A stretch of 32,000 nt of DNA, taken from positions 90,001 to 122,000 of the forward strand of contig JBAZMW010000004.1 in NCBI GenBank assembly GCA_041649575.1, given 5' to 3'. The DNA is from Patescibacteria group bacterium (GTDB taxonomy: Bacteria > Patescibacteriota > Patescibacteriia > 2-01-FULL-39-33). This document shows, one piece after another, positions 1 to 22,729 of this stretch (positions are counted from its first letter, which is position 1; each line of letters starts with the position of its first letter). Below the pieces are notes generated by a model. The model saw only the letters and a program-made list of their open reading frames with translations, did no database searches and had not been told where the DNA came from. Position numbers and translations under genes: made by a program.

Positions 1-93
1 TGGGTTGGCGCCAATCATTCACCGGATGATTGGCGGCGTTCGCCTTCGGCTCACTGCCAACCCGTTCAAATCCCAGCCTTTCTGTCGAAAGGC

Positions 94-130
94 AAATTTT
101 ACTCCCGCTTCGCGGGGTAAAATTTTCCTT
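94..130. terminator. Bidirectional hairpin between the convergent plus-strand tRNA-like fragment and the minus-strand tRNA-Ser
   Basis: AAATTTTAC / GTAAAATTT outer stem enclosing a CCCGC-TTC-GCGGG hairpin, with A/T runs on both sides. Confidence 0.45.
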
Positions 131-217
131 CGGAGAGGGAGGGATTTGAACCCTCGAGACCCTTTCAGGCCTATCGCTTTTCGAGAGCGACCTATTCAAC
201 CACTCTAGCACCTCTCC
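131..217 (-). tRNA. tRNA-Ser(CGA), type II with long variable arm
   Basis: The reverse complement folds as acceptor GGAGAGG/CCTCTCC, anticodon stem TCGCT/AGCGA with loop CTCGAAA (anticodon CGA), variable arm TAGGCCTGAAAGGGTCTC, T-arm GAGGG-TTCAAAT-CCCTC and discriminator G. No CCA is encoded. Confidence 0.9.
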
Positions 218-230
218 ATGTTTGTTATTT

Positions 231-488
231 TTATTTTTCCAATATAACCGTTTTTATTCTTGTCTTTAAGACTCTTCTCCCTTGACCGGTTTTATAAAAT
301 AACTCTTGATTTCTGGCATCTTTCTCATATTTGAAAGCCTCGTAATATATAATCTCTAATGGCCTTCTATTTCTTGTGCTTTCAACTTTTCCGGAAGCGT
401 GTTCCATAAACCTCCTTCTTAAGTCGCTAGTATACCCAATATACAGTTTTTTATCATACTGACTTTTAAGGATATAAACAAAAAACAT
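231..488 (-). CDS. Small GIY-YIG nuclease superfamily protein (UPF0213-like, about 85 aa)
   Basis: Translation is MFFVYILKSQYDKKLYIGYTSDLRRRFMEH...RRPLEIIYYEAF...ARNQELFYK, which shows the GIY...YIG motif followed by conserved R and E residues. I prefer the ATG at 488 over the track's TTG at 509. The stop lies 13 nt upstream of tRNA-Ser. Confidence 0.8.
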   Translation of the reverse strand: MFFVYILKSQYDKKLYIGYTSDLRRRFMEHASGKVESTRNRRPLEIIYYEAFKYEKDARNQELFYKTGQGRRVLKTRIKTVILEK

Positions 489-508: not shown

Positions 509-596
509 ACTCCGCTCAGCCTGCCCGCTCAAGAATCTGAGCGGGCTGGTGAGCGGACCCGCTCGCTCCGCCGAGCGGGCACTCTAGCACCTATCC
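509..596 (-). repeat. GC-rich multi-hairpin block (509-579) fused to a 17-nt copy of the tRNA-Ser 5' end (580-596)
   Basis: The reverse complement of 580-596, GGATAGGTGCTAGAGTG, matches the first 17 nt of the intact tRNA-Ser (GGAGAGGTGCTAGAGTG) at 16 of 17 positions. The block 509-579 is built from three CCGCTC and three GAGCGG units, for example GCCCGCTCA-AGAATC-TGAGCGGGC. Confidence 0.7.
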
Positions 597-610
597 ACAA
601 CAATTAACCT

Positions 611-11088: not shown

Positions 11089-12126
11089 ATGGCAAAGATA
11101 ATTTACGGCGTGGCCGGACAGGGCTTTGGCCATTCTACCAGAAGCAAAGAAATTCTAAGGCAGCTGGTCAGCCAGGGGCATCAGGTTTTGGTCTTTACTT
11201 ATGGCCAGGCGCTGTTTTTTTTAGACGAGGAATTTAAAGTTTTTGAAATACCGGGCTTGGGCTTGACTTACAAGGATAACAAGCTGGTTTATTGGCAGAC
11301 AATTTTTAGAAATACCAAACAGCTCCTCAAACAGTCGAGAAATTGGAAAAAGATTTTGAAATGTTTTCGTGATTTTAATCCCGACTTAATTTTTACCGAC
11401 TTCGAACCTTTAACCGCCATGCTGGCCAAATTGCAGCGGTTGCCGTTAATTTCTATTGACAATCAGCACCAAATGACCAATACCAGGATCGAAATTGGCG
11501 CTAAATATCGCCGGGATTTGTTGGCCGACAGATTAATTATTAAGTCGATGGTTTGGGGGGCTAAGAGTTATCTGGTGGCGACTTTCTTTGAGACGCCAAT
11601 AACCAAAAAAAATACTTTTTTGTTTCCGCCCATTTTGCGTCAGGAGATTTTGGATTTAAAACCGCAAAAACAAGACTACATTTTGGTTTATCAGACTTCC
11701 GACTTTGATTCTTTAATTAAAGAGTTGAAAAAAATCAAAGAGAAATTCGTGGTTTTTGGTTTTGATGTTGAAAAAGAAGACGGCAATCTGGAATTTAAAA
11801 AATACAGCCACAACGAGTGGTTTGATTACCTGGCTAACTGTAAGGCCATAATCGGCAATGCGGGCCTAAGCCTGATGACCGAGGCTTTATATTTACAGAA
11901 GCCCTATTTGGCCATACCGGTCAAAAAACAAATAGAACAAGTGATCAATGCTTATTATTTGGAGCAGCAGGGCTATGGTCGATTGGCGGAGACCTTTAAT
12001 AAAGAGCAATTTGAAAATTTTATAAGCAACTACCAAAAATTTGAAAATAATTTAAGGGCCTATGGCCACAAGGATAATCAGGCAATTTTTGGAAAAATAA
12101 ATGAATTAATCAAAGAATGGTCGTAA
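11089..12126 (+). CDS. GT-B fold glycosyltransferase (MurG/UDP-glycosyltransferase-like, MJ1255-type)
   Basis: N-terminus MAKIIYGVAGQGFGHSTRSKEI (G-rich loop with His), plus a C-terminal ...AIIGNAGLSLMTEALYLQKPYLAIP... nucleotide-sugar binding region. I prefer the ATG at 11089 over the track's TTG at 11077. Confidence 0.65.
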   Translation: MAKIIYGVAGQGFGHSTRSKEILRQLVSQGHQVLVFTYGQALFFLDEEFKVFEIPGLGLTYKDNKLVYWQTIFRNTKQLLKQSRNWKKILKCFRDFNPDLIFTDFEPLTAMLAKLQRLPLISIDNQHQMTNTRIEIGAKYRRDLLADRLIIKSMVWGAKSYLVATFFETPITKKNTFLFPPILRQEILDLKPQKQDYILVYQTSDFDSLIKELKKIKEKFVVFGFDVEKEDGNLEFKKYSHNEWFDYLANCKAIIGNAGLSLMTEALYLQKPYLAIPVKKQIEQVINAYYLEQQGYGRLAETFNKEQFENFISNYQKFENNLRAYGHKDNQAIFGKINELIKEWS

Positions 12127-12136
12127 TACCAAAGTC

Positions 12137-12165
12137 TTTACGAAATCGAAAATATTTGCTATACT
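12137..12165 (+). promoter_or_regulatory. Promoter: TTTACG, 17-nt spacer, TATACT, driving the tRNA-Gly region
   Basis: Hexamers at 12137-12142 and 12160-12165. The predicted start lies about 15-20 nt before the tRNA-Gly 5' fragment. Confidence 0.4.
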
Positions 12166-12187
12166 GTTTTAGTAATTTGGAGTGTTT

Positions 12188-12252
12188 GCGGCGGTAGTTT
12201 CCGCCTCGGCTCGCTAGGCTTCGCCAAGGCGAGACTGGCGGTTGGTCATAAC
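12188..12252 (+). repeat. tRNA-Gly 5' fragment interrupted by a 42-nt GC-rich hairpin module
   Basis: GCGGCGGTAGTT is identical to nt 1-12 of the intact tRNA-Gly. It is followed by TCCGCCTCGGCTCGCTAGGCTTCGCCAAGGCGAGACTGGCGG (12200-12241) and then TTGGTCATAAC, compared with TTGGCTAGAAC in the intact D-arm. Confidence 0.7.
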
Positions 12253-12298
12253 CTTTGTTTGTTATAATTTTGGTAACGTAAAAAGTGTTTTACAATAT

Positions 12299-12372
12299 GC
12301 GGCGGTAGTTCAGTTGGCTAGAACGTCTCCTTGCCAAGGAGAAGGTCGCCGGTTCGAATCCGGTTCGCCGCT
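12299..12372 (+). tRNA. tRNA-Gly(GCC)
   Basis: Acceptor GCGGCGG/TCGCCGC, D-arm GTTC-AGTTGGCTA-GAAC, anticodon stem TCTCC/GGAGA with loop TTGCCAA, and T-arm GCCGG-TTCGAAT-CCGGT. Confidence 0.9.
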
Positions 12373-12404
12373 CTGGGATAAAAGTAAAAAACAATTTAGT
12401 AATG

Positions 12405-12448
12405 ACGGCTATTCTCGCTTAGGCGACGGCAGAAGCGAGACCAGCCGT
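12405..12448 (+). repeat. GC-rich hairpin module of the same family as the tRNA-fragment inserts
   Basis: ACGGCT...AGCCGT outer stem with CTCGCTT...AAGCGAG inner stem. It shares the GCGAGAC motif with the modules at 12200-12241 and 24473-24504. Confidence 0.55.
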
Positions 12449-12498
12449 AATCGGCGCAGTCGAGCGCAGGCAAATGCGACCTGGGGAGCATTTGACTC

Positions 12499-12535
12499 TG
12501 CCGGGGAACGTCCGGTTCGAATCCGGTTCGCCGCT
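12499..12535 (+). pseudogene. tRNA-Gly 3' fragment (anticodon-loop remnant, variable loop, T-arm and acceptor 3' strand)
   Basis: TGCCGGGGAACGTCCGGTTCGAATCCGGTTCGCCGCT aligns to TGCCAAGGAGAAGGTCGCCGGTTCGAATCCGGTTCGCCGCT of the intact gene. The last 24 nt are identical. No matching 5' half lies adjacent. Confidence 0.65.
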
Positions 12536-12536
12536 C

Positions 12537-12749
12537 ATGGAGTTTCCACCGATACCCACAACTAAATATCTTTTACCAGACGAACAAGATAAAAGAATTT
12601 TTGACAAGTTGGGGAAATTGGTTCAATGCGAGCTAAGCCAGCAAGAAGAAGTGTTGGTTAAGCTTTTATATTCGCAGCTAGAGGATGACTGGAGATCGCC
12701 ATTAGAAAGTTTTGTGGATCAATTATTGGTAAACAAGAAAGTTATTTAG
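12537..12749 (+). CDS. Hypothetical 70-aa protein
   Basis: The ORF reads MEFPPIPTTKYLLPDEQDKRIFDKLGKLVQCELSQQEEVLVKLLYSQLEDDWRSPLESFVDQLLVNKKVI. Its ATG directly abuts the tRNA-Gly 3' fragment. I recognise no family. Confidence 0.3.
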   Translation: MEFPPIPTTKYLLPDEQDKRIFDKLGKLVQCELSQQEEVLVKLLYSQLEDDWRSPLESFVDQLLVNKKVI

Positions 12750-12756
12750 GAAAAAG

Positions 12757-12841
12757 GCCCGGATGGTGAAATTGGTATACACGCAGCACTTAAAATGCTG
12801 TGGCGAAAGCCGTGCCGGTTCGACTCCGGCTCCGGGCACCA
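12757..12841 (+). tRNA. tRNA-Leu(UAA), CCA encoded
   Basis: Acceptor GCCCGGA/TCCGGGC, anticodon stem CAGCA/TGCTG with loop CTTAAAA, long variable arm, T-arm GCCGG-TTCGACT-CCGGC, and 3' end ACCA. Confidence 0.9.
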
Positions 12842-12850
12842 GAATTAAAC

Positions 12851-12878
12851 TTGCGCTAAATTTTTAATGTGCTAAAAT
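12851..12878 (+). promoter_or_regulatory. Putative promoter: TTGCGC, 16-nt spacer, TAAAAT
   Basis: Hexamer match only. The predicted start is about 12885, immediately before the ATG at 12886. Confidence 0.3.
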
Positions 12879-12920
12879 AAGAATAATGAGGAAAAAGCGA
12901 AAAACATTTTTATCAGCCAG

Positions 12921-12973: not shown

Positions 12974-13216
12974 ATGAGAGTGTCTCAAGGTAAGCGAGCC
13001 TTTCTTGTTGGCCGGCTGGTTGGCCAGGCAATCGGCGCGGTGGTGGAACTATTCTATCAAGAAAGAACGGCCTTAGGATTTGTGACCGGCCTGCTACAAG
13101 AAGTCGAAAGACTTCAGCAAAAGCGTCAGAAGAGCCACGCTCTAATGCTCAAAAGAGAAAGGATTAGACGCAAGCAAAAAACGCCAGGTAGCCGAAAAGA
13201 CCCCATGGGCTTATGA
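12974..13216 (+). CDS. Hypothetical 80-aa protein, GC-rich, with strong SD
   Basis: AGAGGAGGA lies 8 nt upstream of the ATG. The ORF has a basic C-terminal half (QQKRQKSHALMLKRERIRRKQK) and is followed by the hairpin AGCCCACCA-TTTT-TGGCGGGCT. Confidence 0.5.
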   Translation: MRVSQGKRAFLVGRLVGQAIGAVVELFYQERTALGFVTGLLQEVERLQQKRQKSHALMLKRERIRRKQKTPGSRKDPMGL

Positions 13217-13901: not shown

Positions 13902-14083
13902 GGGCGGTTAGCTCAGTTGGTTAGAGCGCCTCGTTTATTTACCCTGTTGAATAGGCACATTTAGCTCAGTTGGTTAGAGCGCCTCGTTTACACCGAGGAG
14001 GTCAGAGGTTCGAATCCTCTAATGTGCAAATAGTCCAACAGGGCGGGTCGAGGAGGTCAGAGGTTCGAATCCTCTACCACCCA
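13902..14083 (+). other. Split tRNA-Val-like gene: 5' half 13902-13937 and 3' half 14049-14083, separated by a 111-nt insert that contains tRNA-Val(UAC)
   Basis: The 5' half is GGGCGGT TA GCTC AGTTGGTTA GAGC G CCTCG TTTA. The 3' half is CGAGG AGGTC AGAGG TTCGAAT CCTCT ACCACCC A. The acceptor pairs at 6 of 7 positions. All other arms are identical to the inner tRNA. Confidence 0.6.
13955..14028 (+). tRNA. tRNA-Val(UAC)
   Basis: Acceptor GCACATT/AATGTGC at 7 of 7, D-arm GCTC-AGTTGGTTA-GAGC, anticodon stem CCTCG/CGAGG with loop TTTACAC, and T-arm AGAGG-TTCGAAT-CCTCT. Confidence 0.9.
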
Positions 14084-14151: not shown

Positions 14152-14406
14152 ATGCTAGTGAGAATAATCGTTGGCATTATTGGAGCGGTAGTTGGATTTC
14201 TGATGGTTTTTCGGCCAAAATTTTTTTTGGACGCCATCGGCGAGCAGGCTTGGATGGAAAAAGTTTTTGGTTCGGGCGGTGGCATTTCCGGCTACAAGGT
14301 GATGGGAGTGGTGATTGTGATAATTTCTTTTTTGATCATGACTGGGTTAATTGAGGGGGTGCTAATGGCGATTTTTGGGCCGTTGATTTTTGCCGGTCGG
14401 AGTTAG
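14152..14406 (+). CDS. Small membrane protein (84 aa, 2-3 TM)
   Basis: Hydrophobic ORF MLVRIIVGIIGAVVGFLMVF...VVIVIISFLIMTGLIEGVLMAIFGPLIFAG. Confidence 0.45.
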   Translation: MLVRIIVGIIGAVVGFLMVFRPKFFLDAIGEQAWMEKVFGSGGGISGYKVMGVVIVIISFLIMTGLIEGVLMAIFGPLIFAGRS

Positions 14407-14419
14407 GCGATTTTTAAAA

Positions 14420-14495
14420 GGGCTGTTAGCTCAGTTGGTAGAGCATCGCGTTTGCAACGCGGGGGTCGGGAGTTCGAATCTCCCACAGTCCACCA
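14420..14495 (+). tRNA. tRNA-Ala(UGC), CCA encoded
   Basis: Acceptor GGGCTGT/ACAGTCC with the G3:U70 Ala identity pair, anticodon loop TTTGCAA, T-arm GGGAG-TTCGAAT-CTCCC, and 3' end ACCA. Confidence 0.9.
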
Positions 14496-17014: not shown

Positions 17015-17100
17015 AAAATCCCCGTCTGCCCGTTTTGGTTCTTAAGGTCAGTTGAAGCGAGGCGAGCAGAGGGGATTTTGTGTTTTTGTTTTTATTTTTT
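17015..17100 (+). terminator. Long-stem terminator
   Basis: AAAATCCCC(G)TCTGC pairs with GCAGAGGGGATTTT over 14 bp, followed by TGTGTTTTTGTTTTTATTTTTTT. It abuts the stop codon of the convergent EndoQ gene. Confidence 0.55.
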
Positions 17101-18344
17101 TAGAGCAACTTTTTTTGAACAGTTTTTACGGCAGCGGTCTTGATGGCTATTTGGCCGTAGATACCGTCGTAGCCGGGAGTGATTTCGACTCGGCCGAGTC
17201 GGACGCTGATAATTCTTTCGGCGATCTCCGGCCGGGCGATTTTTTTTAACTGCTCTTCGGTTAAGTCGATCAGAATTTCGAATTCACAATATTTTTTGAT
17301 CAGATTAAAATATTCGGTTTGGACTTTTTTTGAATTTTTGCCAACCCCGAAGCTGTCGGCGATAATTTCTTGTAACGGTATTAGACTTTTGTAGGGAATA
17401 TTTTTGGGAGAGTCGCTGTTTTTTTGATCGGCCAGCTCGTTAACTCGGTGAAGCACCCCTAAGGTCAGGGGTTTTTTACAAAGAGGACAGAGGTTGTTAT
17501 TTTTTTTGCTTACTGCCGGGCTGGAGAGGTAGCGGCAAGCGGCGTGGCCGTCGAAATGATATTTGCCTTCTTCGGGAAAAAATTCAATAGTGTAGAGGAA
17601 TTTGTTTTTATCTTTCTCTTTGATGAGGCGGCTAATTTCCTGGTAGCTCAATTGGCCGTCAGTTATTTCAAACACATTGGCCTCGCGGCCAAGATTGGCT
17701 GGCGAATGGGCATCGGAATTGGAGAGCAAGGTAATTCTATCCAGGGCCGATAATTGCCAATTCATTTTTGGATCGGAAGACAAGCCGGTTTCAATGGCGT
17801 GGATATAAGGAGTGATTTCTTCGAAGCATTCAGCCAGAGAATCAAAACCAGACTTGGAACCAAAAACAGCAAACCAAGGAGTCCAGGCATGAGCGGGAAC
17901 AACCAAACTCTGTTGGTTGATGTTTAAAATAATTTTAGCCAGCTCTTTGGCCGACAGGCCAATAATCGGCCGGCCGTCGGATTTAATATTAAAGCCCCGT
18001 TTTTCAAAGTCGGCAATAATTTTTTCAACGGTCGTGATATCGGGAACCAAAAGGCAGACATGGATTCTTCTGGTTTTGCCGCCCTGCGAGTAGATACAGC
18101 TGATTTCCGTACCCAAGACAAATCTGACAAGACTGTCGCTGTCTTTTAGACGATAAAGCCCCGGCTCGGCTTCGATCAGTTTGTCTTTTATTTCTTTGAA
18201 CCACTTGGGATGAGTGAAATCTCCGGTGCTGACAATCTTTATGCCCTTATATTGGCACCAAGAGTCAATATTTTCCAAGGTCAAGTCACGCGAGCAACCT
18301 CGGGAATAGGCGGAATGGATATGTAAGTCGGCAATGACGCGCAT
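17100..18344 (-). CDS. Endonuclease Q-like PHP-domain nuclease with a C-terminal Zn finger
   Basis: Matches include N-terminal DLHIHSAYSRGCS, ...PAHAWTPWFAVFG..., LLSNSDAHSPANLGREANVF, GKYHFDGHAACRY...CPLCKKPLTLGVLHRVNELAD and PGYDGIYGQI. These fit my recollection of Pyrococcus/Bacillus EndoQ. Confidence 0.75.
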   Translation of the reverse strand: MRVIADLHIHSAYSRGCSRDLTLENIDSWCQYKGIKIVSTGDFTHPKWFKEIKDKLIEAEPGLYRLKDSDSLVRFVLGTEISCIYSQGGKTRRIHVCLLVPDITTVEKIIADFEKRGFNIKSDGRPIIGLSAKELAKIILNINQQSLVVPAHAWTPWFAVFGSKSGFDSLAECFEEITPYIHAIETGLSSDPKMNWQLSALDRITLLSNSDAHSPANLGREANVFEITDGQLSYQEISRLIKEKDKNKFLYTIEFFPEEGKYHFDGHAACRYLSSPAVSKKNNNLCPLCKKPLTLGVLHRVNELADQKNSDSPKNIPYKSLIPLQEIIADSFGVGKNSKKVQTEYFNLIKKYCEFEILIDLTEEQLKKIARPEIAERIISVRLGRVEITPGYDGIYGQIAIKTAAVKTVQKKLL

Positions 18345-19439: not shown

Positions 19440-19551
19440 GTCCGGGCGCTGACCTACTTTCCCCATTGAAGAGTATCATCGGCTCAGGAGGGCTTAACTA
19501 CTGAGTTCGGGATGGGATCAGGTGTGACCCCTCTGATAGAAGCACCCAGAC
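19440..19551 (-). rRNA. rrf: 5S rRNA
   Basis: Helix I pairs GTCTGGGTGC with GCGCCCGGAC. The conserved core CCCATCCCGAACTCAGTAGTTAAGC is present. Ends are good to about 3 nt. Confidence 0.9.
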
Positions 19552-19602
19552 TCTGGATTCAAAAATTTTTTGATAAGCAATAATCGTAATCACAATTCTT
19601 GC

Positions 19603-22729
<3,127 letters not shown>

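Follow-up and report, generated by a model that had tools for sequence, protein, structure and literature searches.

The window analyzed here is a 32,000-nt stretch of a Patescibacteria group bacterium contig (JBAZMW010000004.1, positions 90,001 to 122,000 of the forward strand; assembly GCA_041649575.1). Intact tRNA genes are accompanied by fragments of themselves at three of its loci, Gly, Val and Ser, the last occupying positions 1–597 on the minus strand (Table 1). At the Gly locus, an intact tRNA-Gly(GCC) gene with no encoded CCA is flanked by exact same-strand repeats of its own ends, nt 1–12 recurring 111 nt upstream and the last 25 nt recurring 139 nt downstream. Within the window, GCGGCGGTAGTT occurs only at 12188–12199 and 12299–12310, against a chance expectation of 0.13 at up to one mismatch, and two matches were reached in 0 of 100 shuffles. 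The 24-mer CCGGTTCGAATCCGGTTCGCCGCT, with an expectation of 0, occurs only at 12349–12372 and 12512–12535, and blastn-short aligned nt 51–75 of the gene with 12512–12536 at 25 of 25 positions.

Table 1. Features of the Gly, Val and Ser loci; positions are counted from the first letter of the window, and SE denotes the structured element described in the text.
Locus	Feature	Position	Strand	Basis or remark
Gly	Sigma-70-like promoter, TTTACG-17-TATACT, TG before the -10	12137..12165	+	tRNA-Gly/tRNA-Leu operon
Gly	Leader motif TTTAGTAAT, copy 1	12168..12176	+	motif kept in relatives' leaders
Gly	Outer 5' fragment, tRNA-Gly nt 1-12, exact	12188..12199	+	at ancestral gene start
Gly	GC-rich hairpin module, 42 nt, between nt 12 and D loop of dead copy	12200..12241	+	-30.3 kcal/mol, z = -2.9
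Gly	Degraded D-arm remnant TTGGTCATAAC, end of 5' partial copy	12242..12252	+	8/11 identical to gene nt 16-26
Gly	AT-rich spacer with extended -10-like box TGTTATAAT at 12260-12268	12253..12298	+	direct sequence inspection
Gly	Intact tRNA-Gly(GCC)	12299..12372/3	+	ARAGORN; Rfam tRNA, 67.4 bits
Gly	Leader motif TTTAGTAAT, copy 2	12395..12403	+	directly 5' of SE
Gly	SE	12404..12510	+	covariance model, 90.5 bits, E = 1.7e-20, filters off
Gly	Outer 3' fragment: T arm, acceptor 3' strand, discriminator	12509..12535	+	12512-12535 exact copy of gene nt 51-74
Gly	70-aa small gene, 1 nt after the 3' fragment	12537..12749	+	ordinary conserved small protein, non-nuclease
Val	Outer 5' half, nt 1-36, acceptor GGGCGGT	13902..13937	+	exact repeat in part
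Val	Inner intact tRNA-Val(UAC), acceptor GCACAUU/AAUGUGC	13955..14028	+	ARAGORN, Rfam
Val	Outer 3' half, nt 39-76, acceptor 3' strand ACCACCC	14049..14083	+	exact repeat in part
Ser	Outer 5' fragment, tRNA-Ser nt 1-17	581..597	-	dead fragment
Ser	Double GC hairpin (CCCGCUC..GAGCGGG / UCCGCUCA..UGAGCGGA) in dead fragment at TG^G	511..580	-	conserved
Ser	GIY-YIG ORF (putative nuclease), 85 aa, between fragment and intact tRNA-Ser	231..488	-	Pfam PF01541, E = 3.9e-15
Ser	Intact tRNA-Ser(CGA), no encoded CCA	130..218	-	ARAGORN
Ser	SE, second copy in the window, cut by its edge	1..86	-	covariance model, 33.6 bits, E = 2.3e-5

The upstream half of the Gly locus agrees with the preliminary description of this DNA, which had been drawn up from the letters alone. 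The 5' fragment is an exact repeat of nt 1–12 beyond chance, the gene that it copies was called by both ARAGORN and Rfam, the 42-nt GC-rich segment folds as claimed, the proposed D-arm remnant matches the D arm at 8 of its 11 positions, and the AT-rich spacer does hold a TATAAT preceded by TG. The promoter of the operon, the sole promoter-like site in a consensus scan of 12050–12900, lies upstream of the 5' fragment and not of the intact gene. Its TTTACA-17-TATAAT architecture and the TTAGTAAT leader are kept upstream of the 5' fragment at five related loci (L091, L002, L005, L010 and L011), and the flank of the fragment, GGAGTGTTT running into GCGG, matches GGTGTGTTT running into GCGG in L091. 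Judged by sequence, the TGTTATAAT box could possibly be the intact gene's own promoter; no -35 accompanies it, and it was not called by the consensus scan. Inserts related to the 42-nt hairpin module occupy the same position in L011 (15 of the first 17 nt identical), L010, L027 (Val) and L028 (Arg). The module also has a paralogue within the locus, at 12414–12448 (27/35 identity, outer stems covarying), and the leader motif TTTAGTAAT has just two sites in the 32 kb, one ahead of each module.

Downstream of the intact gene the picture had to be redrawn. A 3' fragment at 12499–12535 had been described as matching the gene from the anticodon loop to the discriminator; the identity of its last 24 nt holds, but the supposed anticodon-loop match, TGCCGGGGAACG, is the conserved 3' strand CUGCC(C)NGGAAC of the SE, which also stands beside Val, Leu, Ala and Ser genes. 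Likewise, a hairpin module at 12405–12448 and a long hairpin at 12467–12501, listed as separate items, both belong to the single SE. The tRNA-derived part of the 3' fragment begins at about nt 48 (12509), and the outer pieces together span nt 1–12, a degraded 16–26 and about 48–76, leaving nt 27–47 and hence any outer anticodon arm absent. The claim that the outer pieces make up one tRNA with a complete copy of the same tRNA inside it consequently fails at this locus; a nested reading fits Val.

That the Gly locus comprises a live tRNA-Gly(GCC) gene with a dead partial copy on either side of it, all on one strand, is well supported. Equally well supported is the composition of the two copies. 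The upstream one, located where the ancestral gene began and preceded by the conserved operon promoter, comprises nt 1–12, the 42-nt hairpin and the decayed D arm; the downstream copy comprises a leader remnant, the paralogous hairpin module fused to the SE, and a perfect T arm and acceptor 3' strand. Tandem partial copies fit the Gly locus better than nesting, because the unit with the 3' piece carries its own leader motif and hairpin-module paralogue; nesting fits Val. No GIY-YIG ORF is present at 12127–12756, which holds only the 70-aa non-nuclease gene. This gene was ruled out as part of a cassette, since its homologues (59–63% identity) have grpE and dnaK as neighbours on either side and no tRNA in the vicinity. 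It is absent from the related L19 loci. A further ORF, 12974–13216, has no homologues among the related loci.

The SE is about 105 nt long, and 20 distinct copies of it were found. In the Gly copy, a variable 5' hairpin is followed by P1 (CGGCAG/CUGCCG), the conserved junction GAAGCGAG, a variable hairpin, GAGCG, a 7-bp P3 (CAAAUGC/GCAUUUG) with the loop GACCUGGGGA, and the tail GGGGAAC; its isolated core (12424–12511) folds to the family structure. In an alignment fitted to the covariance model, which favours the structure, 97.6% of cells were paired and 18 of 19 pairs showed double changes; none of 500 shuffles reached the score, and slid controls were 29–45% paired. RNAalifold on an independent MAFFT alignment gave compensatory changes at 15 of the 19 pairs. 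The SE is a structured RNA by these measures, its pairs being kept through compensatory changes well above controls. On the tRNA-sense strand, G-U pairs outnumber A-C pairs by 10 to 3. Within single genomes the copies are divergent; orthologous copies are conserved with compensatory changes, which resembles a long-lived functional RNA more than junk.

Each of the 20 copies is either at a contig end or no more than about 260 nt away from an intact tRNA gene on its own strand, and every one found sits inside a broken tRNA copy next to an intact tRNA, in Buchananbacteria-like relatives. With filters off, the covariance model recovered only two copies in the 32-kb window, with a tRNA less than 100 nt upstream of each. 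For the window and the related loci, a dispersed repeat of the REP or MITE type was rejected, since the copies are tRNA-adjacent rather than many and scattered between genes. The SE does not keep to one position: depending on the locus it is found in the D, variable or T loop and on one or the other side of the live gene, and a large number of orthologous loci have no SE at all. The tRNA parts attached to it are cut off in differing ways, and every SE-bearing tRNA copy examined has truncated or crippled exons (e.g., a T loop reduced to UU(U)) and an intact gene next to it. No Rfam 15 family matched over the SE copies in the window (E ≤ 10) or at eight related loci (E ≤ 5), and the same searches of the window (gathering cut-offs and E ≤ 10) and of the eight loci (E ≤ 5) returned tRNAs, rRNAs and chance matches only. 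Affiliation with tmRNA, two-piece tmRNA or T-box RNA was also rejected: ARAGORN called no tmRNA, Rfam gave no match, and the acceptor lacks G3-U70.

The sequence abutting the core depends on the site. In T-loop copies, a stretch of 8–16 nt is exactly reverse-complementary to the part of the cognate tRNA that runs from G53 through the T-stem 3' strand. This arm was also considered as a forward T-arm remnant, a reading discarded because forward matches reach only 5–6 nt, against 8–16 nt for the reverse complement, which tracks cognate T-loop variants. Copies in the variable loop have an arm (CCGGCGACC in Gly, CCGCUGACC in Ala) with complementarity to the sequence on either side of the insertion point; a group I internal guide sequence is laid out in this way.

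At the Val locus, the topology reported in the preliminary description was recovered as exact repeats of 30 and 28 nt. The two outer halves complement each other and share an acceptor, GGGCGGT/ACCACCC, unlike the GCACATT/AATGTGC of the inner gene. L003 and L022 have the outer acceptor in their intact tRNA-Val, and L083 has it in an outer 3' fragment; in the window, the outer acceptor stem contains a C-A mismatch. The two arms of an 8-bp inverted repeat (CCCUGUUG/CAACAGGG) stand on either side of the inner gene at the canonical intron position, and the 3' flank of the outer 3' half, AATAGTTAACAGGGC, repeats that of the inner gene. The Val locus of the window has no nuclease ORF.

Such an ORF is present at the Ser locus, where it separates a tRNA-Ser 5' fragment and its double hairpin from the intact gene. 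On the other side of that gene, the SE follows an arm in which the T loop and T stem of tRNA-Ser appear as their reverse complement. The continuation past the window edge, contained in L212, shows what had been predicted beforehand, namely a hairpin, tRNA-Ser nt 58–76 with encoded CCA, and a terminator. Since the outer piece encodes CCA and the inner gene does not, the outer piece would be the old gene end and the inner gene its replacement. L163, syntenic with this locus, has the 5' GIY-YIG cassette and lacks the 3' SE and fragment, which suggests that the 5' and 3' events can be independent.

The catalytic domain takes up residues 1–67 of the 85-aa protein, with no extra (DNA-binding) domain. 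Its 74 homologues include proteins from other CPR classes. Of six homologues examined, five abut tRNA-Ser; ahead of each of these lies an exact 5' fragment of tRNA-Ser with the same double hairpin. In L163, L165, L167, L169 and L170, that hairpin likewise occupies this spot upstream of a GIY-YIG ORF. The SE was not found near the GIY-YIG loci of other CPR clades, so SE and nuclease are separable. Besides the Ser locus of the window, seven related tRNA loci carry GIY-YIG ORFs. All eight such ORFs in the first 81 loci adjoin a same-strand tRNA, most of them lying between a fragment of that tRNA and the intact gene. At Leu(GAG) loci, the ORF stands between the 5' fragment and the intact gene in L006, L022 and L023, and most of the 121 loci have no ORF; in L006 the fragment and the intact gene retain the native 5' and 3' flanks, which places the ORF and a 5' tRNA copy inside the gene. 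The ORF is thus patchily present at orthologous sites, with its boundaries in or next to the target. A tblastn search of 50,697 phage records returned 11 weak matches (37–39% identity), in Rhizobium and Listeria phages and one unclassified phage, and none in T-even phages. The NCBIfam model for group I intron endonucleases scored 22 bits against its cut-off of 56.

The preliminary description had proposed a search for fragments around an inner tRNA in the genome and its relatives. Among 138 related loci, such fragments were found at 45 of 359 tRNAs, and with three loci in the window the argument for a process rather than random decay of one locus is supported, except for the reading of Gly as one split tRNA. 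Sixty significant fragments lie within 700 nt of the 359 tRNAs, 58 of them on the same strand, at intervals of 15–640 nt from the intact gene, with a GIY-YIG ORF often in between. Their polarity is pronounced: 5' parts stand upstream in 29 cases and downstream in two, and 3' parts stand downstream in 26 and upstream in one. An assembly artefact is ruled out by the recurrence of the pattern in dozens of loci that were assembled independently. Contigs with identical L19 were 100% identical to the window over the compared stretches and represent the same genome; in genome and metagenome scans, the next-best relatives have 74–79% L19 identity. Orthologous Gly loci (L091, L086, L002, L005 and L010) are arranged as promoter, nt 1–47, SE, crippled T arm and intact gene. 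The co-variation of outer fragments with the inner gene, another point raised at the outset, was seen there: in every one of these genomes the 47 nt match its own variant of the tRNA without a difference, a sign of concerted evolution. In L005 the outer pieces overlap (nt 1–47 and 34–75), which implies at least two events.

On balance, we hypothesize that these loci are probably scars left where nuclease-driven breaks in tRNA genes led to recombination and replacement, in the manner of phage SegB, the GC hairpins having come later. The tRNA genes of this lineage would have been broken repeatedly and repaired through recombination with another copy of the same tRNA, whether from a sister, an allele or a foreign source. 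Only two products would be seen, since an intact copy has to persist: 5' part, insert and intact gene, or intact gene, insert and 3' part. The most likely breaker would be the small putative GIY-YIG nuclease, since its ORF persists between fragment and intact gene at sister loci, including the tRNA-Ser locus of the window; at Gly the ORF may have been lost or may never have been there, and for both Gly and Val, which are ORF-free, we infer a nuclease role by analogy with these loci. Identity of the dead copies with the live gene over long uninterrupted homology may be attributed to gene conversion, and they would decay where inserts cut that homology. They would then gather GC-rich hairpins and SEs, both of which were found only in tRNA-loop positions of dead copies; the SE would be a selfish or structural RNA-level module of the insertions, co-transcribed with the tRNA operon.

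Exact same-strand fragments far beyond chance and their lineage-wide recurrence support this origin, as do the GIY-YIG ORFs beside tRNAs, the tRNA-Ser fragment and double hairpin ahead of the homologues, the outer Ser end predicted past the window edge, the co-duplicated flanks, the concerted evolution of the Gly orthologues, the recent gain of a hairpin and the precedent of SegB. Several points weigh against it. Gly and Val in the window have no nuclease ORF, the putative CPR nucleases consist of an 85-aa catalytic domain that lacks a DNA-binding domain and show no detectable similarity to T-even phage Seg proteins, and the intact copy beside the ORF would have to escape cleavage. The conservation of orthologous SE copies, more like that of a functional RNA, and the lack of SEs at GIY-YIG loci of other CPR clades count against it as well. 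Moreover, the 5' fragment and hairpin keep the same position in lineages down to 68% L19 identity (L011), which would need selection or site-specific re-insertion, and plain duplication by replication slippage gives the same polarity.

That last process is the basis of an explanation we consider unlikely, in which partial tandem duplications through slippage or unequal crossing-over, neutral decay and selection for one intact copy produce the polarity, with ORFs and hairpins as passengers. Any event that spares one intact copy would yield it, and flanking sequence is co-duplicated with part of the tRNA in L001, L005, L011, L036, L038 and L079, as it is at Val in the window, which is expected of recombinational partial tandem duplication; the leader motif and hairpin module repeated at Gly point the same way. 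However, the intervening DNA is usually a nuclease ORF, an SE or hairpins rather than flank, and the GIY-YIG ORF, double hairpin and tRNA-Ser fragment recur as a unit across CPR classes. All of about 15 inserts inspected by eye lie in tRNA loops or at loop/stem boundaries. Inner and outer Val differ in their acceptors and inner and outer Ser in CCA, which argues for replacement by another allele and not for self-duplication.

It is distinctly doubtful that the fragments and the SE are instead functional, selected parts of the tRNA operon transcript, i.e., leader or trailer RNA or a small RNA on a tRNA scaffold, with the tRNA-identical stretches serving mimicry or pairing. The very strong covariation and the excess of G-U over A-C on the tRNA-sense strand are in its favour, as are the exact, cognate-specific complementarity of the T-type arm and the complete identity of fragments with each genome's own tRNA variant; the conserved promoter upstream of the fragment would also have all parts co-transcribed. 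The shifting position of the SE, the many orthologous loci entirely free of it and the variously truncated tRNA parts attached to it speak against such a function.

Those arms could alternatively make the SE a new small (about 100 nt) mobile RNA element, specific for tRNA loops and finding its target by base pairing, as an intron-like, reverse-splicing ribozyme or a guide RNA; dead copies would be survivable landing sites, and the GIY-YIG cassettes a second, independent parasite. We hold this, too, to be quite improbable.

Far less probable are scars of phage or island integration and excision by integrases at tRNA genes, i.e., att duplications whose element body has since been deleted. Tyrosine integrases use tRNA genes as att sites of integrative elements, direct repeats of the tRNA 3' end downstream of an intact tRNA are the classic signature, and the fragments do begin in the T or anticodon loop, the usual crossover zones; same-strand partial tRNAs beside a reconstituted intact gene are a shared feature. 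Membership in this class was nevertheless rejected: Pfam searches of neighbouring ORFs and gene calls revealed no integrase or recombinase near any locus, the inserts measure tens to hundreds of nucleotides instead of kilobases, upstream 5' fragments are as frequent as downstream 3' fragments, and the cargo is a GIY-YIG nuclease. The SE was not found in viral contigs either; two degenerate patterns picked out 34 viral stretches, none of which scored with the covariance model, marking them as chance matches.

Finally, it is highly improbable that a functional tRNA, be it split or intron-containing, arises from the outer pieces, with the SE or inner gene removed by self-splicing or by RNase P/Z and the halves joined or held together: the exactly complementary Val halves, the inverted repeat at the intron position, the tolerant tRNA positions taken by the SE and its guide-like arms would suit it, but Gly lacks an outer anticodon arm, the outer Val acceptor has its C-A mismatch, the SE-bearing copies examined have crippled exons beside an intact gene, and Rfam gave no match at E ≤ 5–10 to self-cleaving ribozymes or to introns of group I or II. 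Inserts in D, anticodon, variable and T loops, with adjoining sequence complementary to the exon junction, are shared with archaeal split tRNAs and non-canonical introns and with bacterial group I tRNA introns; unlike these, the present loci offer no complete exons, bulge-helix-bulge, group I or other ribozyme core, and an intact intron-less gene is always adjacent. For the Nanoarchaeum type of split tRNA, Gly was excluded by the missing nt 27–47, and Val comes near, yet has an intact gene and the acceptor mismatch.

Nuclease-driven breakage and replacement, the origin we prefer, has its closest parallel in SegB of the T4/T6 phages, a free-standing GIY-YIG homing endonuclease whose recognition site in tRNA genes is the T-psi-C stem-loop; cleavage followed by homologous recombination spreads the nuclease gene with neighbouring tRNA genes, and the tandem amplified units it drives contain full tRNAs and truncated copies (PMC2330249; PMC13096335). 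In both systems a GIY-YIG nuclease gene is set among tRNA genes. SegB is phage-borne and has sequence beyond the catalytic domain, whereas the putative CPR nuclease is an 85-aa catalytic domain encoded on a bacterial chromosome. Unlike SegB, its ORF lies inside a tRNA gene, with a compensating tRNA 5' copy and the conserved GC double hairpin, and the Gly locus has no ORF. The search of phage records gave no detectable similarity to SegB or other Seg proteins of T-even phages.

If this origin holds, CPR tRNA genes, mostly single-copy and essential, would be hotspots of attack by selfish elements, survivable only since each insertion brings or leaves a compensating gene copy. A nuclease gene would thereby have an intron-free way to inhabit an essential RNA gene, and the SegB principle would extend from T-even phages to bacterial chromosomes and minimal 85-aa nucleases. 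Full-text literature searches yielded no description of tRNA fragments, the SE or tRNA-linked GIY-YIG cassettes in CPR. The loci explain several oddities of CPR metagenome-assembled genomes, namely strange tRNA 'pseudogenes', tRNA calls that are missing or duplicated, and long tRNA spacers, and the SE adds a strongly covarying RNA-like motif outside Rfam, tied to tRNA loops and a candidate processing signal, guide or ribozyme.

Mobile GIY-YIG and LAGLIDADG ORFs of fungal mitochondria bring a replacement gene end, the resident end becoming a pseudogene, as in Allomyces atp6; 'fractured genes' with homing endonuclease genes have reportedly been described as well. The likeness consists in a selfish nuclease ORF within an essential gene that has no intron, a duplicated segment that keeps the function and a displaced fragment next to it. 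Those ORFs target protein genes in organelles and phages, whereas here the targets are bacterial tRNA genes, with fragments on both sides and a separate structured non-coding element.

GC-rich mobile hairpins are a feature of AT-rich genomes, among them the GC clusters of yeast mitochondria, the double-hairpin elements of Allomyces and the palindromic elements of Rickettsia. The modules described here are similarly short and palindromic, can sit in genes or RNA genes and are gained or lost between close relatives, but they were seen only at loop positions of tRNA-derived dead copies, and the SE differs in its conserved unpaired nucleotides and multi-helix architecture. L086 and the near-identical L002 differ by a clean insertion of 19 nt, which indicates that hairpin gain is recent.

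The window comes from the chromosome of a Patescibacteria (CPR) bacterium and has bacterial 23S and 5S rRNA genes, seven tRNAs and, among its housekeeping genes, RuvB, QueA, L19 and a glycosyltransferase. By L19, the nearest relatives are Candidatus Buchananbacteria-like metagenome-assembled genomes (74-79% identity), to which the gene order glycosyltransferase, tRNA-Gly(GCC), tRNA-Leu(UAA), rplS, tRNA-Leu(GAG), tRNA-Val(UAC), 84-aa membrane protein, tRNA-Ala(UGC) is common. No nearer relative was found in the collections searched.

The tRNA pieces around the intact tRNA-Gly are genuine repeats. The 12-mer GCGGCGGTAGTT of the 5' fragment occurs only at 12188 and 12299 (chance expectation 0.13), and the gene's final 24 nt are confined to 12349 and 12512 (expectation 0); the 42-nt insert forms a stable hairpin, as described, and the D-arm remnant TTGGTCATAAC matches at 8/11 positions. 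The preliminary description had also extended the 3' fragment back to the anticodon loop, but this match, TGCCGGGGAACG, belongs to a conserved structured element of about 105 nt (SE), a single member of which accounts for all of 12404-12510. As in all relatives, the 5' fragment is preceded by a conserved sigma-70-like promoter and the leader TTAGTAAT; the fragment marks the ancestral start of the tRNA-Gly gene. The leader motif TTTAGTAAT occurs only twice in 32 kb, ahead of the 5' fragment and directly ahead of the SE. Two hairpin modules, at 12210-12242 and 12414-12448, are paralogous, with identity at 27/35 positions (1/500 shuffles as good) and covarying outer stems (CCGCC/GGCGG vs ACGGC/GCCGU). 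Given the repeated leader motif and the paralogous modules, the locus is most simply described as three units in tandem, of which two are partial, rather than as the single tRNA gene split by an insertion that had been proposed. A 70-aa ORF begins 1 nt past the 3' fragment; it has homologues (59-63% identity) between grpE and dnaK in other contigs, and is an ordinary conserved small-protein gene relocated to the Gly locus.

The SE came to light by comparing orthologous Gly loci. Five related loci (L002, L005, L010, L086, L091) share the layout promoter, tRNA-Gly nt 1-47, ~105 nt of GC-rich sequence, short hairpin, AT spacer and intact tRNA-Gly; the element also follows nt 1-47 of tRNA-Val (L006, L013, L096) and tRNA-Ala (L084), and is found on the downstream side of intact genes for Val, Leu(GAG) and Ser. 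Its position at the window's Gly locus differs, being downstream of the live gene instead of upstream after nt 1-47, with a perfect T arm and acceptor coming next. RNAalifold revealed compensatory changes in 15/19 pairs among eight copies. Across the 20 distinct copies recovered by a covariance model search, 97.6% of cells are paired and 18/19 pairs show double changes; in the controls, 0/500 shuffles were as good and sliding the partners left 29-45% paired. On the tRNA-sense strand, G-U pairs exceed A-C pairs by 10 vs 3. The unpaired conserved stretches are GAAGCGAG, (C)AG.GAGYG, the P3 loop GA(G/C)C...G(C/G)A and the 3' tail C.NGGAAC, and no Rfam family matches the element. With filters off, the window holds exactly two copies, one shortly downstream of tRNA-Gly and the other of tRNA-Ser.

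In every case the SE sits inside a tRNA copy that is broken, and its site there is the variable, D or T loop (see table). In the T-loop class, the core is abutted by 8-16 nt that exactly reverse-complement the cognate tRNA over the stretch from G53 to the end of the T-stem 3' strand, and these antisense arms follow the cognate T-loop variants (AUUCGAAC, ACUCGAAC, AUUUGAAC). Variable-loop copies (L010, L091, L084) end with the T-stem 5' strand, UU(U) and then an arm, which is the complement of the variable loop together with the T-stem 5' strand and spans both sides of the insertion point. The arms may be a trace of past foldback at the TTCGAA palindrome, or they may serve as a guide; on this ambiguity rests a possible, less likely reading of the SE as a mobile RNA or guide.

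The Val locus is as first reported, with exact repeats of 30 nt and 28 nt, and its acceptor stems differ (outer GGGCGGT/ACCACCC vs inner GCACATT/AATGTGC). Across 20 nt, the outer 5' fragment (13902-13921) and the beginning of tRNA-Ala(UGC) (14420-14439) are also 95% identical, which reflects common acceptor and D-arm sequence, not a separate fragment. The 84-aa predicted membrane protein between tRNA-Val and tRNA-Ala (14152-14406, +) is conserved in ~45 related loci and has no Pfam family.

Such fragments recur across the lineage. A blastn-short scan of each intact tRNA against its masked surroundings (138 non-redundant loci, 359 tRNAs) detected 60 significant fragments no more than 700 nt away; 58 share the strand of the tRNA, and 45/359 tRNAs (12.5%) have fragments. 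Polarity is strong: 5' parts lie upstream in 29 cases vs 2 downstream, and 3' parts downstream in 26 vs 1 upstream. Flanking sequence is often co-duplicated with the tRNA part (20 nt in L005, 24 nt in L011, 25 nt in L001, ~40 nt in L038, ~17 nt at the window's Val locus). In L079 (4785-4992), three tandem 44-45-nt units, each of upstream flank, tRNA-Asp nt 1-17 and ~14 nt, directly precede the intact tRNA-Asp(GUC), with the breakpoint in the D loop (nt 17/18). In L036 (1-1000), a record with masked N runs, tRNA-Ile(GAU) is followed by repeats of a 3' half with a T-loop insert and a spacer of 78 nt whose sequence is that of the gene's own 3' flank. Every insert inspected is located in a loop of the tRNA or where a loop meets a stem (12/13, 17/18, 19/20, 21/22, 25/26, 31/32, 35/36, 47/48, 56-58).

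Features of the Gly, Val and Ser loci (window positions) and host sites of the SE (tRNA positions)
Feature	Position	Strand	Locus or remark
Sigma-70-like promoter	12137-12165		Gly locus
tRNA-Gly 5' fragment	12188-12199	+	Gly locus
Hairpin insert, 42 nt	12200-12241	+	Gly locus
Intact tRNA-Gly(GCC)	12299-12372	+	Gly locus
tRNA-Gly 3' fragment	12509-12535	+	Gly locus
70-aa ORF	12537-12749	+	Gly locus
Outer tRNA-Val 5' half	13902-13937	+	Val locus
Intact tRNA-Val(UAC)	13955-14028	+	Val locus
Outer tRNA-Val 3' half	14049-14083	+	Val locus
tRNA-Ser nt 1-17 fragment	597-581	-	Ser locus
Double GC hairpin, 70 nt	580-511	-	Ser locus
D-loop remnant	between double hairpin and ORF	-	Ser locus
85-aa GIY-YIG ORF	488-231	-	Ser locus; PF01541, E = 3.9e-15
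Intact tRNA-Ser(CGA), then spacer	218-130	-	Ser locus
Antisense arm + SE	86-1	-	Ser locus; truncated by window edge
SE in variable loop	nt 47/48		Gly, Val, Ala
SE in D loop	after G19		L003 Val, L011 Gly, L092 Val
SE in T loop			antisense arm + core, then hairpin, then tRNA nt 58-76

At the Ser locus, the 85-aa ORF is a GIY-YIG catalytic domain. A phmmer search of the first 81 loci identified eight GIY-YIG ORFs, all beside a same-strand tRNA and most between an intact tRNA gene and a fragment of that tRNA. At Leu(GAG) in L006, L022 and L023, where the ORF stop codon abuts tRNA nt +1, the 5' fragment keeps the native upstream flank and the intact gene the native downstream flank; the ORF with its copy of the tRNA 5' part therefore sits within the gene. 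Among database homologues from other CPR classes, 5/6 examined lie immediately upstream of tRNA-Ser, and these five have an exact tRNA-Ser 5' fragment ahead (nt 1-17 or 1-35/36), into which the same double hairpin is inserted at TG^G. L169 (1-630) carries two tandem GIY-YIG ORFs with a tRNA-Ser 5' fragment (nt 1-35) and double hairpin between them and, downstream of the intact tRNA-Ser, a 3' fragment with a GC hairpin in its T loop and CCA at its end. The T-loop pattern predicted a hairpin and tRNA-Ser nt 58-76 beyond the Ser SE, and exactly these are present in L212 (2380-3080), the DNA continuing past the window edge. The outer 3' piece there has an encoded CCA and an intrinsic terminator and the inner intact gene no CCA; the outer piece is therefore what remains of the old resident gene's end, and the inner gene has replaced that gene.

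The 47-nt Gly fragments match their own genome's tRNA variant at 100% (GCTTCC..GGAAG in L002, GTCTCC..GGAGA in L005 and L091, GCGGTGG in L010), while the SE and spacers have diverged among these loci. The fragments undergo concerted evolution, most simply explained by gene conversion. Remnants decay where the homology is interrupted by an insert, as in the window's Gly D arm. Compared with the near-identical L002 (3545), L086 shows a clean 19-nt GC hairpin insertion, CCTGCCCGCCTGGGGTGGG (565-583), in the dead tRNA-Gly fragment, at GGCTA|GAAC and without target duplication; its H1 hairpin is also swapped. The inserted hairpin resembles the UCCGCC..GGCGGA hairpin within the SE of the same locus. 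Hairpin gain is ongoing.

A model in which a nuclease triggers breakage of tRNA genes, and recombinational repair or replacement then follows, has the best support. Such a process would leave partial tRNA copies, and only those products that retain one intact gene would survive. The data show the anatomy of the loci, their recurrence and polarity, the association with the ORF, the structure of the SE and, in the Val acceptor and the Ser CCA, replacement by another allele. We infer that the ORF product cuts tRNA genes and that it caused the Gly arrangement, and likewise gene conversion and the status of the SE.

Among characterised systems, SegB of T4/T6 comes closest. Three features argue against placing the CPR protein in the SegB family: it has just 85 aa, lacks a DNA-binding domain and has no detectable similarity to T-even phage proteins. 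A full-text literature search returned no description of tRNA fragments, the SE or tRNA-linked GIY-YIG cassettes in CPR. We read the finding as probable homing-endonuclease-type turnover at tRNA genes. It includes an RNA-like motif, the SE, which is unmatched in Rfam, is described nowhere in the literature searched and could prove to be more than that.

Elsewhere in the window, a 414-aa ORF (17100-18344, -) has no Pfam match at E <= 0.01. A 5S gene (19441-19549) adjoins the 23S gene, and the window contains no 16S gene. The 23S rRNA match (19602-22728, -) is 3127 nt long vs the 2925-nt model, and the gene therefore probably carries ~200 nt of insertion(s).
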